A stretch of DNA of 64,000 bases. Source: Staphylococcus phage LY01. Below the pieces are notes generated by a model. The model saw only the letters and a list, made by a program, of their open reading frames with translations, made no database searches and was not told the DNA's origin. Shown here piece after piece: positions 27,014 through 43,128 of the stretch. Position numbers and translations under genes: made by a program. Within the stretch, counting starts at the first letter, position 1. Each line of letters begins with the position of its first letter. The stretch lies in sequence record OR836606.1, one strand, 5' to 3'.

Positions 27014-27324
27014 CTATTTACTAGCTTTTATACTCACATTTTTTGATTTAGGATTATTTAATAAATAAACCGCAATCTGCGAGTCTTTATTAAGTGAATA
27101 TGTTCTATTAAACAAACCATCATTATATGATATTAATTGATTGACTGGATCTTGTACTTTTAACATATCATACTGCTCTTCTGAAAATAAAGCTATAATA
27201 TTTAAAGTATCACCATCATAATCGGCACCCATTCCAGCTAAGATATTGTTACTAATACCTACTACAGCAGAATCAATATCATTAGTGATATCTTTAATTT
27301 TTAATATTTGAACTGAAGATTCTG
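27014..27324 (-). CDS. RNAP beta-prime N-terminal subunit, exon 2 (catalytic DxDGD loop)
   Basis: Frame is open upstream of the track ATG. Encodes ...ILAGMGADYDGDTLNIIAL, matching bacterial beta-prime ...[19 protein letters not shown]. It continues ...NDGLFNRTYSLNKDSQIAVYLL, like [21 protein letters not shown]. Exon start (about 27324) estimated from the intron 3' end. Confidence 0.7.
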
Positions 27325-27478
27325 AGATTGAAGGGTTCTTTTCATTAGACTATATCATTATCTTTTACTAAGATATATACTATTTAGTCGTTGAACAACT
27401 TATATTAAGTTGATGCTGATTAATTTTAATAAATCTTTTCAGCAATTAAGTATTATTAATTCATTAATATATTACTAT
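27325..27478 (-). ncRNA. group I intron (mini-intron family) splitting the RNAP beta-prime gene
   Basis: On the minus strand: P TTAATTGCTGAAA (27440-27449 rc), Q AATCAGCATC (27412-27422 rc), R GTTCAACGACTAAA (27383-27397 rc), S GATATAGTCT (27347-27356 rc). Exon 1 frame stops inside the intron. A splice after ...GCGLI-U gives an in-frame beta-prime. Confidence 0.7.
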
Positions 27479-28485
27479 ATTAAGCCGCAACCCATTTTAC
27501 GGTTCAAAATTACTCTCATACCGCCTTCAGTTTTATTAACTAATTCTTTCATGTACTTATATACTTTAGGATTAAAGTTATCCAAAGCTTTACCTAATAT
27601 TTCTTCCGCTTTAGGTAATGGAATATTTTCTGTTACATACATTAAATTAGCCAATAATGGTTTATATATTTCTAAGAAGATTGTATAATTCATTCTAATT
27701 TCATTTAATTTTAAGTCAGGTGCTGGAACAATTACTGAACGAGCTGAATATCCTACTCGACTACCCATAATTAATTTACGAATAGTTCCCATTTTACCTT
27801 TAATATTCTCATTAATAATGCGCTCATAGATATTCATATTATCATCTTGAATTTTATTAAGTAAATTTAATTTCTGCAATTCAACTGAATCATCTGTATA
27901 ATGCTCATCTAATTCTTTAAGACTATTACTATGAGCAATTAATAAATTAAATTCTTTATTGATCTCTGAATGTCTAAATGTCTTAGTTGCCTTATTAACT
28001 GTGGCTGGTCTTAATTTAGGACTAAATACGGTTACATAATTTTGAAATAATGTTCCATTTAAATACCACTGAACAACCCTATTGTAATCTTTAGTTGAAC
28101 GTTTATCACGTTTAACTTCTTCTTTAAGAATTTTTAAAAAGTTCTTTCTAAATTCAACTAAACCAATATATGAATTATGATCATCTTCCGGTTCAATTAC
28201 ATTGCCATTCTCATCGATAGGTTTTTCAGAACTAATAATTTCAGCAAATCTTTTTCTACCTATTAGTTTTTTAATTCTATCATATCCTAAAGGCGTAATA
28301 ATATAGTTATTGCCTAAATAAATTATAGCTTCATTTGTAATATTATCTATATCTGAATCAGGTCCAAAGATTTTCTCACTGAAGATACCGTCTTCAGTGA
28401 AATCACCTTTCTTATCAATTGATTCATGATTAGTCACTACTGGTAATTTTGATAAATCTTTATTCTTAAGTAAAAATCTAGCCAT
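27475..28485 (-). CDS. RNAP beta-prime N-terminal subunit, exon 1
   Basis: DGIFSEKIFGP matches DGLFCARIFGP. MGSRVGYSARSVIVPAPDLKLNEIRMNYTIFLEIYKPLL matches LGKRVDYSGRSVI(T/V)VGPxLxLHQCGLPKKMALELFKPF. The last ~9 codons are probably intron read-through. Confidence 0.8.
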   Translation of the reverse strand: MARFLLKNKDLSKLPVVTNHESIDKKGDFTEDGIFSEKIFGPDSDIDNITNEAIIYLGNNYIITPLGYDRIKKLIGRKRFAEIISSEKPIDENGNVIEPEDDHNSYIGLVEFRKNFLKILKEEVKRDKRSTKDYNRVVQWYLNGTLFQNYVTVFSPKLRPATVNKATKTFRHSEINKEFNLLIAHSNSLKELDEHYTDDSVELQKLNLLNKIQDDNMNIYERIINENIKGKMGTIRKLIMGSRVGYSARSVIVPAPDLKLNEIRMNYTIFLEIYKPLLANLMYVTENIPLPKAEEILGKALDNFNPKVYKYMKELVNKTEGGMRVILNRKMGCGLI

Positions 28486-39942: not shown

Positions 39943-40389
39943 TTATTTACTTTCTTCAATAATTTCTTTAACTAAATTATTTATTTCTTGAGGTTTTAAA
40001 TCATTGATATCATCTACATTTTCATATTTTTCCATTAAGAATTCTAATTGATCTTCATTTAAATCCATAATACCTAGTAATTCATCTTCTTCAGGTTCAT
40101 CAAATGTCATACTAACATTTAATGGGCTGAAGTAAGCATTAAGTACTTTAGTATTATTATTTTGAGTTCTTTTTTGTATATCTTTTGTATTGATCTTAAA
40201 TGGATTACCTGTATATAATTCAACTAATAAACGTTTACGCATATCTGGATTATTTGAGTACATATTCGTTAATTGATTGATTGCTTTGATAGAGCCACCG
40301 ATCATCATATTAGTTGTTTCCATTTCACCGATGCGGAGCGGATTGTTGTTAATTCTTGACAAATATTTCTTGGACATGTGTATTAGCTT
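39943..40389 (-). CDS. RNAP beta subunit C-terminal gene, last exon
   Basis: KLIHMSKKYLSRINNNPLRIGEMETTNMMIGG matches DK(M/L)[39 protein letters not shown]. Exon starts immediately after the G that ends mini-intron 4. Confidence 0.75.
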   Translation of the reverse strand, partial: KLIHMSKKYLSRINNNPLRIGEMETTNMMIGGSIKAINQLTNMYSNNPDMRKRLLVELYTGNPFKINTKDIQKRTQNNNTKVLNAYFSPLNVSMTFDEPEEDELLGIMDLNEDQLEFLMEKYENVDDINDLKPQEINNLVKEIIEESK

Positions 40390-40578
40390 CATGCATTTTG
40401 CATAAAGATTAGACTATATCATTACCATTTAAGGTAGAATATATTTAGTCGTTGAACAAGCCTTACCGACTTGATGCTGATTTAATTAATAAATTATTCC
40501 AGCAATTAATATTACTTTTTTATATTATTCTTTCGAATAATACCGGACACAAGAAATTTATCCGGAGTTCTAGTAGGT
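40390..40578 (-). ncRNA. mini group I intron 4 of a tandem array in the RNAP beta gene
   Basis: P TTAATTGCTGGAA (40498-40510 rc), Q AATCAGCATC (40473-40483 rc), R GTTCAACGACTAAAT (40444-40458 rc), S GATATAGTCT (40411-40420 rc). A P9-like hairpin TGCAAAATGCA is followed by a G directly before exon codon AAG (K). Confidence 0.65.
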
Positions 40579-40780
40579 CGTTTATCTTATATTAATTTTA
40601 ATACAAGACAGACTATATCATACTCATTATTATGAGTGAATATATTTAGTCGTTGAACAATTTTCATTGATGCTGATTATTCTTAATAGAACTTTCCAGC
40701 AATTAATATTCTTTTACTGAGACATCTACATATCCCACTGTAATTGTTAAAGTCTAATGATTTTGCACTGATTTTCTTTA
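40579..40780 (-). ncRNA. mini group I intron 3 of the tandem array
   Basis: P 40694-40706, Q 40669-40679, R 40645-40659, S 40610-40619 (all rc). After S comes a hairpin and AAACG (G at 40579). Confidence 0.6.
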
Positions 40781-40961
40781 CGTTAATCTATATAATTTAT
40801 TATATAGAACAGACTATATCTTATACTTTTGAAGCATTAATATATTTAGTCGTTGAACAGTATTTAACTGATGCTAATCAATTTTATTAAATCGTCCTAG
40901 CAATTAATATTATAATTATAAATTATATTTCTATAATAAACGGCAAATTTTTACCTGATGG
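40781..40961 (-). ncRNA. mini group I intron 2 of the tandem array
   Basis: P CCTAGCAATTAA 40896-40907, Q 40870-40880, R 40845-40859, S 40811-40820 (rc). Hairpin TCTATATAA...TTATATAGA, then TAACG (G at 40781). Confidence 0.6.
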
Positions 40962-41148
40962 CGTTATTCATATAATACATTTATTATATGACAGACTATA
41001 TCATAATCTATTAATATAATAGATAATCTTTATTTAGTCGTTGAACACTTAATTGTGATGCTGATTATTCTGATAAGAATTTTCCAGCAATTAAAAGATT
41101 TTCGAATGAATCTTTGCAGATACATAGGAGACATCTAATTTGATTCTC
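40962..41148 (-). ncRNA. mini group I intron 1 of the tandem array
   Basis: P 41082-41094, Q 41057-41067, R 41033-41047, S 40994-41003 (rc). 10 bp hairpin TCATATAATA/TATTATATGA, then ATAACG (G at 40962). Upstream exon homology (GDLYHLKLKH matching GYMYMLKLNH) ends at about 41149. Confidence 0.6.
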
Positions 41149-41666
41149 ATGTTTTAATTTAAGGTGATACAAATCTCCAACCATAAATGTTCTATTACTT
41201 ACGTCTAATCTATTTTTCTTAATATTATATTTATTAAATACGTATCTTAATTGTTCTGAATCAATATTACCAAAAAATGGTGCTTGGTGTAGCACAATAC
41301 CTTCTTTAATAATTTCATCAATAGCTTCTTTAGTTTCAGATAAATCTAATTGATTAAATAATTTAACATAATTGTCATATGAAATTTTATCTACATCTTT
41401 AATATATCCTAATAGATATTCTTTCTGTTGATTAATATCATCTAATTTACTTATACGATGTCTTATTACATTTGACACATGATTTAACTCTAATTCAATT
41501 AAAGCTGATGGATTACCACGGTTAATGATACCCATATTATTATGAATTAAATCTACTCGTTTACTAATTGGTGTTTTAGTAGAATCTTTAGTGAAATCTT
41601 CTCCATCGAACTCTGTGATCATTGGCATTTGATCATCAGGTACAATTTCAGCCACAACGCCTTTGC
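41149..41666 (-). CDS. RNAP beta subunit C-terminal gene, middle exon
   Basis: ...GGKGVVAEIVPDDQMPM...VDLIHNNMGIINRGNPSALIELELNHVS...MVGDLYHLKLKH matches bacterial beta HGNKGVISKINPIEDMPY...[24 protein letters not shown]...VGYMYMLKLNH. The track ORF 41065-41655 extends into intron read-through (LLIAGKFLSE is encoded by the P element). Confidence 0.75.
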
Positions 41667-43128
41667 CGCCATCGAGTCTTCAGCAAAGATCGCTAATCTT
41701 TGCCCGTTCTCTTATGAACTGCTCTAGATTTTCTCTAGAAGACGAGACTATATCTTCACCCTAAAATTTAGGAGAACTATGTTTCCATTTAATAGAATTA
41801 CATTAAGCTAATATCACTTAAAAACTAACCGCTTGGCTGTACTCTACTCATATAGTAATTTTCTTCATTATAATATATACCATTTTGTATATACATTATA
41901 TTTTCACCATACTTATCGATAGTCGTTGAACTAATTAAATTATTGTCTAATATTTCATTCATTAATTTTCTTAATGTATCTAAATATATAGTTCCTTTTA
42001 TTCTTATCATATTATAATTTTTATTTTTTATAATTAAATTTTTAGTATCATCTATTAATACACATCTATTATAATGATCCCAACCTTTTTTAACTTTACT
42101 GTTTTTCCCACCCCAAGGTCGAAAATGTTGATTTCCATCAACTTCAATTATTAAATTTAATTCAGGGATATAAAAATCATATTTATAATACTTAGATTTA
42201 GATACATTTAGATTATTGTTTATTTTAAAATCATATTCATATTTTAGATTATTTGTTTTTAATATTTTAATAATTTCTCTTTCTGCTTTAGAAAAACTTC
42301 TTTCTTTATAACAAAAAGGACATCTTATTCCACCATTAACAAAATTTTTCCTCGTTGTTGTACTATATACTTTTCCACATTTTTTATGTTTTAAAGTTAT
42401 AGGAATTGTCTCTTTTACATATTCACCAAACATCTCATATTCACCATTAGAAACTTTTTCAATATCTTTTTTACAAGATTCCGTTGTCACTTCATAACCT
42501 GAGCATCGTTTACATATTGTTTTTACTCCATCTTTTCTTTTTCTTTTTAAAAGAGTTGTAGGAGATATATTTACAATATGTCCACATTTATGTTTAAATT
42601 TCATAGACTTACTGAATCCTTTATAATCTTCTTTATTAAATGTATATTCTCCTGGTAAAAATTTATTTAGTTTGTATTCAAGATTTTCTGGTGTTTGATT
42701 TTTAGTATAGAAACAATTGGGACAATAACCATGTTCATTATCTCTTTTAAATGTATGAGGTTTGGTTTTAAATTCTAAACCACAATCTAAATGTTTAATT
42801 AATGTAGATGTATCTCCGTTAATGTATTCTCCAAGAAGTACATAATTTTTATTATTTAAAATATTTTCAAAAATTCTTTTATTTTCTTCTCTTTTCATTT
42901 TAATCATTCCTTTCAAAAAGAAATGAATATTAGACAATTTTAATTAGCTGCTGATTAACCATTGCAAAAATACTTAGGTTTTTCAACCATATATTATCTC
43001 ATTTATTATCTTCAACTTTTCAGTAACCATAGAGGTTAAATGAGCTTTAGGCAGTCCCAGCAATTAATAGTTTTTTAATAGCATGTTACCATACTATGAG
43101 ACCTAGTTTGATCTCGTTGTGATTTTCG
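41667..43128 (-). ncRNA. group I intron (about 1.46 kb) in the RNAP beta gene carrying a homing-endonuclease ORF in P6
   Basis: P AATTGCTGGGACTG (43047-43062 rc), Q AATCAGCAGC (42943-42952 rc), then an ORF. R GTTCAACGACTATCGAT (41927-41943 rc) lies inside the ORF's 3' end. S AAGATATAGTCTC (41746-41757 rc) is followed by P9/P9.1 hairpins (TCTAGAGAAAATCTAGA; GCAAAGATTAGCGATCTTTGC). Joining ...HG-(x)-KGVVAEIVP restores the conserved beta HGNKGVISK motif. Confidence 0.7.
41825..42937 (-). CDS. intron-encoded homing endonuclease (zinc-finger repeats + DUF559/Vsr-like PD-(D/E)xK domain)
   Basis: Multiple CxxC...CxxC pairs. C-terminal YDFYIPELNLIIEVDGNQHF matches the DUF559 motif (R/Y)xDF...l(v)IE(v)DG..H. 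The track start is TTG. An ATG with AAAGGA RBS at about 42898 is the more likely start. Confidence 0.65.
   Translation of the reverse strand: MSNIHFFLKGMIKMKREENKRIFENILNNKNYVLLGEYINGDTSTLIKHLDCGLEFKTKPHTFKRDNEHGYCPNCFYTKNQTPENLEYKLNKFLPGEYTFNKEDYKGFSKSMKFKHKCGHIVNISPTTLLKRKRKDGVKTICKRCSGYEVTTESCKKDIEKVSNGEYEMFGEYVKETIPITLKHKKCGKVYSTTTRKNFVNGGIRCPFCYKERSFSKAEREIIKILKTNNLKYEYDFKINNNLNVSKSKYYKYDFYIPELNLIIEVDGNQHFRPWGGKNSKVKKGWDHYNRCVLIDDTKNLIIKNKNYNMIRIKGTIYLDTLRKLMNEILDNNLISSTTIDKYGENIMYIQNGIYYNEENYYMSRVQPSG

Follow-up and report, generated by a model that had tools for sequence, protein, structure and literature searches.

A stretch of 64,000 nucleotides from Staphylococcus phage LY01 (record OR836606.1; hereafter the window) very probably carries a group I intron of 161 nucleotides (nt) at positions 27498..27338 of the minus strand. 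The intron contains no open reading frame (ORF) and lies between residues R329 and N330 of the gene for the beta-prime N-terminal subunit of the non-virion RNA polymerase (nvRNAP). The case is made by an insertion polymorphism among related phages, the RNA structure of the insert, covariation within a family of paralogues, and colinearity of the spliced product with uninterrupted homologues. Splicing itself, and splicing without protein help, are predicted from these sequence features. An earlier reading made from the letters of the window (the sequence-only reading) had proposed that a mini group I intron, with a P/Q/R/S core on the coding strand, interrupts the RNA polymerase beta-prime gene of the phage upstream of the DxDGD motif, and this proposal is borne out by the Rfam and covariance-model matches described below.

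The window has a GC content of 24%. Nearest to it are five Staphylococcus jumbo phages, Madawaska, MarsHill, DC4, S6, and PALS_2 (93-94% nucleotide identity), followed by Machias, PB50, SA1, and AH12 (84-90%), and by this similarity its source would be an AR9-like Staphylococcus jumbo phage. According to Korn et al., AR9-like phages encode two multisubunit RNA polymerases (RNAPs), and the beta and beta-prime subunits of jumbo-phage RNAPs are divided among separate genes. In Madawaska, S6, and SA1, the homologous gene, which the relatives label 'non-viral RNA polymerase beta-prime subunit', is a single unbroken ORF of 1311 bp, encoding 436 amino acids (aa) and reading ...GGMRVILNRNPSISESSVQILKIKDI..NNILAGMGADYDGD. 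In the window, the minus-strand ORF 28485..27475 encodes 336 aa and ends with ...GGMRVILNRKMGCGLI and a stop codon, and a separate 72-aa ORF (27232..27014) on the same strand begins with MGADYDGDTLNIIAL. The sequence-only reading had correctly placed the end of the first ORF at ...VILNRKMGCGLI and the resumption of the frame at ...ILAGMGADYDGDTLNIIAL. Comparison with the homologues shows VILNR, then a gap, and then NPSISESSVQILKIKDITNDIDSAVVGISNNILAGMGADYDGD in a different frame.

Alignment of the window with three intronless alleles leaves a single gap of exactly 161 nt. This gap is free to slide by up to three positions (MAFFT set it three bases upstream), and the boundary was chosen to give the 5' exon a terminal U and the intron a terminal G, as the group I rules demand. 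Because of this requirement, exon 1 ends at 27499 (CGU, Arg329) and exon 2 starts at 27337 (AAC, Asn330); the sole alternative G in the 3' tail would cause a frameshift if used as the intron end. The alleles of Madawaska, S6, SA1, Machias, PB50, and AH12, all intronless at this site, read VILNR-NPSISESSVQILKIKD, and the window carries the identical VILNR and NPSISESS split by the insert, so that the junction is CGU/AAC. The KMGCGLI and stop codon at the end of the 336-aa ORF are read-through into the intron, translation of the unspliced RNA ending 7 codons inside it. The sequence-only reading had set the element at 27325-27478, a range that misses the first 20 nt of the intron, with the P1 guide, and takes in 13 nt of exon 2.

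Joining the two exons yields a 436-aa protein that is colinear with its homologues. Its alignment to the solved AR9 nvRNAP beta-prime chain (PDB 7S00/7S01 chain d, E ~1e-69; AR9 LLNRNPTISIGS...GDYDGD, with LLNRNPTIS at the junction) runs through the junction ungapped, and the protein also aligns to bacterial beta-prime (LLNRAPTLHRLGIQAF...NADFDGD); the DYDGD segment of exon 2 falls on GDYDGD of the former and NADFDGD of the latter. The Pfam domain PF00623 (RNA_pol_Rpb1_2) scores 41.3 bits on the spliced form (residues 241-383), above its cut-off, whereas the unspliced ORF reaches 20.8 bits and stays below it. Exon 1 shares 94-95% nucleotide identity with the equivalent DNA of Madawaska and S6. 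The first ATG of exon 2 is preceded by 35 codons, none of them an in-frame start; 11-14 codon differences from the relatives in this stretch are synonymous and 2-4 non-synonymous, and neither of the remaining frames is open. Lacking a start and being under coding constraint, these codons are therefore translated as a continuation of exon 1, and the full-length protein requires removal of the intron at the RNA level.

The insert folds into a group I core (Table 1). The P3-P8 core is present in full, including the P3/P7 pseudoknot and the P, Q, R, and S elements, and P1-P8 together with P10, each helix having been checked, comprise 53 pairs with zero mismatches. The R and S elements match the Rfam consensus GUUCAaAGACUAAA...GAUAUAGUC, and the conserved G-C pair of the guanosine-binding site is present in P7. 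P1 and P10 are formed by pairing of the guide sequence GGGUUGCGG with the ends of the two exons. P1, with its U.G wobble, falls at a position that agrees with both the insertion boundary and the P1 of the Rfam alignment, and the 3' splice site has an omega-G (...AAAAG) as well as P10. No P9 or P9.0 element is found in the 10 nt from P7 to the 3' splice site. An unconstrained minimum free energy (MFE) fold recovers P1, P2, P4/P5, P6, and P7/P8 (z = -3.04), and the frequency of the MFE structure in the ensemble is 0.0011.

Table 1. Coordinates of the host gene, the predicted intron and its RNA elements in the window, and positions of related copies in other loci
Feature	Position	Strand	Basis
Exon 1, nvRNAP beta-prime N-terminal gene, codons 1-329, ending ...GTA ATT TTG AAC CGT = VILNR	27499..28485	minus	ORF list; relatives' annotation
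Predicted group I intron, 161 nt, ORF-less, 22% GC, from AAAAUGGGUUGCGG to UAAUGAAAAG, terminal omega-G at 27338	27338..27498	minus	gap against three intronless alleles; Rfam; family model; helices
P1, exon CCGU (27502..27499) and intron AA (27498..27497) with UUGCGG (27490..27485); U27499.G27488 wobble at the 5' splice site; 6/6 pairs	27485..27502	minus	helix check; MFE fold; Rfam alignment
P10, GGGUU (27493..27489), overlapping the P1 guide strand, with exon-2 AACCC (27337..27333); 5/5 pairs	27493..27489 with 27337..27333	minus	helix check
P2, 8-bp hairpin UUAAUAUA/UAUAUUAA with GUAA (GNRA) loop	27464..27483	minus	helix check
P3, AUACU (27453..27449) with AGUAU (27381..27377), 5/5 pairs; encloses P4-P6, pseudoknot with P7	27377..27453	minus	helix check
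P4 UGCUGA/UCAGCA (6 pairs; classical P and Q elements) and P5 GAUUU/AAAUU (5 pairs); J4/5 and J5/4 A-rich	27414..27444	minus	helix check
P6, hairpin CAACUUA/UAAGUUG, 7 pairs	27396..27412	minus	helix check
Catalytic core: R element GUUCAACGACUAAAU (27396..27382), P7, S element GAUAUAGUC; guanosine-binding helix	27348..27396	minus	Rfam consensus; paralogues
P7, GACUA with UAGUC, 5 pairs	27389..27385 with 27352..27348	minus	helix check
P8, hairpin UAUCUU/AAGAUA, 6 pairs	27359..27375	minus	helix check
3' tail UAAUGAAAAG, 10 nt, without P9 hairpin; terminal G is the omega-G of the 3' splice site	27338..27347	minus	family comparison
Exon 2, codons 330-436 and stop, starting AAC CCT TCA = NPS, includes GADYDGD	27014..27337	minus	colinear with intronless homologues
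DYDGD codons, Mg-binding catalytic triad of beta-prime, 38 codons 3' of the 3' splice site	27209..27223	minus	translation
Paralogues with GUCGC guide	L003:3001, L008:20086, L009:11189, L010:20090, L010:25637		

The intron belongs to a family of ORF-less introns of about 160-200 nt, with at least eight copies in the window, where eight full copies lie on the minus strand. The R 13-mer occurs in eight exact copies in the window, a number of matches reached in 0 of 100 shuffles. BLAST with the 161-nt sequence gives 100 places in five related genomes (Machias and AH12, 29 each; PB50, 20; Madawaska, 12; MarsHill, 10), and the host genes of the family include those for RNAP, DNA polymerase, prohead protease, and others. 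In an alignment of 12 copies, RNAalifold independently found P2, P4, P5, P6, P7, and P8, and the R/S catalytic core does not vary among the 12. When P3 is included as a pseudoknot, the paired share of cells is 90.8%, compared with 34-49% when the partners are slid by 1-3 columns; 22 of 38 pairs are compensatory, with changes on both sides, and the observed measures were reached in 0 of 500 shuffles. All 8 pairs of P2 have changed on both sides, as have 4 of 5 in P6 and 3 of 4 in P8; P4 is 100% paired, and P5 is 89% paired with 3 compensatory pairs. Compensatory changes in P3 of the paralogues include GAAUAU/AUAUUC, GAAUUU/AAAUUC, and UUUCU/AGAAA, and the loop of P2 is a GNRA tetraloop in the copies where P2 can be traced by eye. 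A P9 hairpin of 7-11 bp directly 3' of P7 is present in all 25 other family copies examined, leaving the beta-prime copy of the window as the sole one of 26 without it, and three other copies lack P8. At 161 nt, the beta-prime copy is the shortest of ten copies with estimated 3' ends, the others being about 175-190 nt.

The covariance model R1 was built from 16 paralogues in other phages, without any sequence from the window. It matches the intron at 27345..27481 over model positions 1-134 of 134 (94 bits, E ~1.3e-17), placing it in the family, and recovers exactly eight copies in the window at 82-102 bits, a range that the other seven also span. Rfam RF00028 matches the minus strand at 27508..27327 over the full model (1-253) with 32.4 bits and E=2.7e-6 in a 901-nt search, and the P1 of this alignment puts cleavage after CCGU, the same site as that derived from the intronless alleles.

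By the standard group I pathway, the guide GGGUUGCGG and the CCGU of exon 1 would form P1 with the U.G wobble at the cleavage site, and an external guanosine held in P7 would attack after U27499. The guide would then align the AACCC of exon 2 as P10, the terminal G27338 would take the guanosine site, and the exons would be ligated to ...AACCGU-AACCCU..., with the 436-aa protein as the product. The predicted ligated RNA reads ...UUGAACCGU/AACCCUUCA..., and a Glu-C or chymotryptic peptide spanning the junction would read ...GGMRVILNRNPSISE. The first residue of exon 2 is also that of the predicted tryptic peptide NPSISESSVQILK, which lacks a start codon.

Several observations weigh against a functional group I intron at this position. 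The RF00028 score falls short of the gathering threshold of 50 bits needed for Rfam membership, and whole-window Rfam searches, in gathering as well as E-value mode, return no match. No other genome or metagenome has an intron at R329/N330, leaving no conservation test of the window copy. The loss of P9 is peculiar to the beta-prime copy, which could be impaired, and its helices are weak at 22% GC, so that the RNA may need a protein chaperone. The Rfam shortfall reflects deleted peripheral parts and not a mismatched core: RF00028 stretches of 37 and 51 model positions are matched by 14 and 5 nt, and the P9 element of the model is aligned largely onto exon 2. Searches of four whole loci with Rfam likewise gave no matches, the introns being recovered solely in short local searches. 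It is possible, if doubtful, that the intron is genuine and uses the same junction but is not autonomous, with a P9-less, AU-rich RNA that needs a phage or host maturase or chaperone in vivo. The missing P9, the low GC content, and the low MFE ensemble frequency are in line with such dependence, and the numerous homing-endonuclease-like proteins of these phages could also act as maturases. However, the core helices and guide pairings are all intact and perfect, and the three P8-less copies reside in essential genes, which suggests that the core tolerates the loss of peripheral helices. The introns of AR9 are reportedly self-splicing.

A decayed, non-splicing remnant, which would make the beta-prime gene a broken one in a defective genome or a pseudogene, is improbable. 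It would account for the unique loss of P9 and for the lack of a second genome with the intron, but not for 53 pairs free of mismatches, R and S elements identical to those of other copies, exon flanks that remain in frame with mostly synonymous changes, or a P1 exon strand matched to the guide by a codon unique to this allele; moreover, by homology to AR9 the gene carries the catalytic DxDGD loop, the loss of which should be lethal. There is very little probability that the gene is naturally split into two polypeptides made without splicing, one of 336 aa ending in GCGLI and one of 72 aa starting with MGADYDGD. Jumbo-phage beta and beta-prime are already divided into separate genes, and an ATG does precede GADYDGD. 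Yet the 35 conserved codons NPSISESS...NNILAG would be untranslatable although constrained as coding sequence, the same stretch is continuous in the single beta-prime chain of the solved AR9 structure, no Shine-Dalgarno motif stands at proper spacing before the ATG (TTAGCTGGAATG), and a complete ribozyme core sits exactly in the gap; no start codon with a ribosome-binding site was found for a downstream part covering the conserved residues. The junction proposed by the sequence-only reading, after ...GCGLI-U and before TTCAAATA (LI/FQILK, giving LIFQILKIKD), is so improbable as to be negligible. A U does precede its 5' site, and the length of the product resembles bacterial beta-prime, though only loosely. 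Splicing there would remove NPSISESSV, a segment shared by all nine relatives and AR9, and would insert KMGCGLI, a segment that none of them has; neither of the two proposed splice sites lies at a boundary of the insertion gap, and the junction is supported by neither P1 nor P10 and is refuted by the VILNR/NPSISESS of the intronless alleles.

The intron occupies a site within the universally conserved LNR/xPT motif (bacterial LLNR/APTLH). The arginine before the insertion (NR(A/N)P motif) is presumably the equivalent of E. coli beta-prime R425, a contact of the substrate ribose. The sequence-only reading had located the intron at the catalytic centre of the enzyme; it is indeed upstream of DxDGD, but the wording is loose, as the insertion precedes the first catalytic Asp by 38 codons. 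An intron at R329/N330 is absent from all nine related phages, six of which have a fully uninterrupted gene of 1311 bp, and the R/N site is unbroken in the other three. Junction patterns found no match in IMG/VR or a metagenome collection, and a look-up of the exact protein returned no record. A single match in GTDB was rejected as a chance 20-mer (about 1.08 expected by chance) in a bacterium of 48% GC, without an intron core.

The intron-bearing allele differs from the others at the junction itself, where its codons are unique. The Arg329 codon is CGT only in this allele and AGG, CGA, or AGA in the others, and this CGT gives the intron-bearing allele, and no other, the CCGU strand that P1 needs and the U for its U.G pair. 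Of the exon pairings, only that of P1 is allele-specific; P10 (AACCC) was considered as a second one and rejected, since the intronless AAUCC also pairs through a G.U wobble. Immediately 3' of the junction, the density of mismatches against Madawaska reaches 7 per 30 nt, up from a background of about 1.6 in exon 1, which fits either co-conversion from a diverged donor or adaptation after insertion. Presence or absence at a precise site among close relatives, together with an altered flanking exon, is the pattern of a mobile intron. No intron-encoded homing endonuclease is found in the 161 nt, which hold no ORF.

The closest paralogues share the guide sequence GUCGC, always after CGAU, in four genes (nvRNAP beta-prime-N, prohead protease, DNA polymerase, and virion RNAP (vRNAP) beta-prime-N), suggesting the hypothesis that new sites are chosen by pairing with the guide sequence. 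Placement by such pairing is what the reverse-splicing model expects (review, PMC3984707). A speculative and rather unlikely extension is that the 161-nt, P9-less RNA is a fully autonomous ribozyme within an ORF-less family that multiplies in jumbo-phage genomes by guide-directed reverse splicing, possibly by means of a retron-like reverse transcriptase, which these phages reportedly encode. Autonomy combined with spread by reverse splicing would explain the shared GUCGC/CGAU in four genes, the 10-29 BLAST places per genome, and the tandem introns with micro-exons down to 6-9 nt.

The nearest known counterpart is the intron in g270 of Bacillus phage AR9 (Lavysh et al. 2016), a related uracil-DNA jumbo phage. 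It interrupts the same gene (nvRNAP beta-prime-N) in the same catalytic region, belongs to the same class of element, and is annotated as a two-exon join. However, it carries the gene of an HNH homing endonuclease (g271) and measures about 0.9 kb, whereas the window intron has 161 nt, no ORF, and no P9. Its insertion point, judged from a tblastn piece ending near residue 380, is also about 50 codons 3' of the site in the window and about 10 codons past DGD. Korn et al. describe RNAP subunit genes as often disrupted by introns in these phages and AR9, with nvRNAP beta-prime-N disrupted in AR9 and intact in MarsHill. The mini-introns of Madawaska, MarsHill, Machias, PB50, and AH12 share the RNA family and architecture of the window copy (core identity 75-85%) and likewise occur in RNAP, DNA polymerase, and prohead protease genes, but none is at R329/N330. 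Korn et al. annotate some of their host genes as joined coding sequences (CDSs); in the preprint and the GenBank joins, the introns were predicted by protein alignment, with no analysis of RNA structure. GenBank joins are present for several genes of Madawaska and Machias.

The Azoarcus tRNA-Ile intron, of about 205 nt, is usually cited as the smallest self-splicing group I example. It resembles the window intron in its compact P1-P8 core without P5abc or P7.1/7.2 extensions and in the GNRA loop on P2, but the window intron is about 45 nt shorter, lacks P9, is extremely AU-rich, and sits in a protein-coding gene. If the window intron proved autonomous, it would be the smaller of the two; a literature search found no statement on the smallest group I intron. 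Classical phage group I introns have lengths between several hundred nt and about 1 kb, usually contain a homing endonuclease gene or did so in the past, and number few per genome. Those of T4 (td, nrdB, nrdD), SPO1 (DNA polymerase), and Twort (review, PMC3984707) are like the window intron in occupying conserved, critical segments of essential genes, in having an early in-frame stop, and in their presence/absence polymorphism; unlike them, the window family forms tandem arrays and reaches the multiplicity given above. The kind of element is thus known, and what is new is the R329/N330 site, the description of the family at the RNA level, and the P9-less form of 161 nt.

Further introns of this type lie elsewhere in the window. 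At 40375-41158 on the minus strand, the nvRNAP beta gene contains four tandem mini group I introns (R elements at 41046, 40858, 40658, and 40457), which, compared with intronless S6, leave micro-exons of 9 nt (CCAUCAGGU, PSG), 44 nt, and 19 nt. Judging from match spans, S6, PALS_2, and DC4 appear to lack all four, and MarsHill and Madawaska appear to have some. Comparison with S6 puts the 3' end of the 40858 intron after AACGUAAAG. The 5' splice site of the 41046 intron (about 41126-41140, minus strand) is ambiguous: colinearity with S6 places it after GAG, without a U, and an alternative site after GAGAAU pairs with the guide GUCUC with one bulge and adds one Asn codon. The virion RNAP beta gene has two tandem mini-introns at 50671-51059 on the minus strand (R elements at 50947 and 50757), and the micro-exon between them is predicted to be 18 nt long (AUUUACACGUUAAGAGGU); with only 14 nt from R to S, the 50947 copy has no P8. 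Another copy lies at 60009-60204 on the minus strand (101 bits with R1), where the relatives annotate a nuclease and an HNH homing endonuclease.

Two elements of the window differ from the mini-introns. At 41743-42937 on the minus strand, a 370-aa ORF (41825-42937), which matches DUF559/Vsr-like proteins weakly (Pfam E=0.0047, below the cut-off), is directly followed by the 3' portion of a larger group I-like intron (GAAGAUAUAGUCU and a P9-like hairpin; R1 29.5 bits, E=0.0017). The two together probably represent an intron with an endonuclease gene, located within the nvRNAP beta gene or upstream of it. At 55161-55330 on the minus strand, a different, GC-richer group I-like core (GUUCAACGACUAUCG ... 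CAUGAUAUAGUCUAG) stands beside the DNA gyrase A gene; a 1.6-kb query around it also matches four Escherichia phage records.

In the relatives, Machias (L003, 2700-3085) and AH12 (L006, same coordinates) have two tandem mini-introns in nvRNAP beta-prime-N, arranged GMG/AD/YDGD, with Rfam scores of 26.8 and 38.8 bits; a 6-nt micro-exon, GCCGAT (Ala-Asp), lies within the catalytic GADYDGD. The GenBank entry of Machias gives a truncated CDS of 373 aa here (CPT_Machias_002) and no join. In PB50 (L004/L007, record 90136-91850), beta-prime-N is broken after ADYDG by an insert encoding a 504-aa 'homing endonuclease', and the 3' end of this insert holds a core matching the anchor motifs of the family (R element at L007:1713), a possible ORF-bearing relative of the ORF-less family. 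More than 120 viral contigs or loci of IMG/VR contain a generic core pattern, TTCAACGACTAAAT-N10-38-ATATAGTCT, many of these contigs being 200-400 kb and some of them metagenome-assembled genomes of giant viruses, and several matches form tandem pairs 330-450 bp apart. The generic R...S pattern was rejected as a marker of the family, as 1 of 153 IMG/VR matches had the P4 motif within 60 nt of R.

Rfam, in gathering mode and in whole-window E-value mode, is blank over 64 kb that hold at least eight, and probably ten, group I introns, which become visible only in stretches below 1 kb. The DC4 genome paper states that Rfam found no introns, a report consistent with the sensitivity problem met in the window. 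Standard annotation and default-threshold Rfam searches thus miss mini-introns, and essential genes of Staphylococcus jumbo phages are deposited as truncated ORFs; the 336-aa fragment of the window, CPT_Machias_002, and the statement on DC4 are examples. A natural P1-P8 core of 161 nt without P9, together with its P8-less sister copies, forms a deletion series for the minimal needs of a group I ribozyme. For the phage of the window, the nvRNAP needs at least five introns removed from its beta-prime and beta genes, and splicing would therefore be an obligatory early step of infection and a possible vulnerability.

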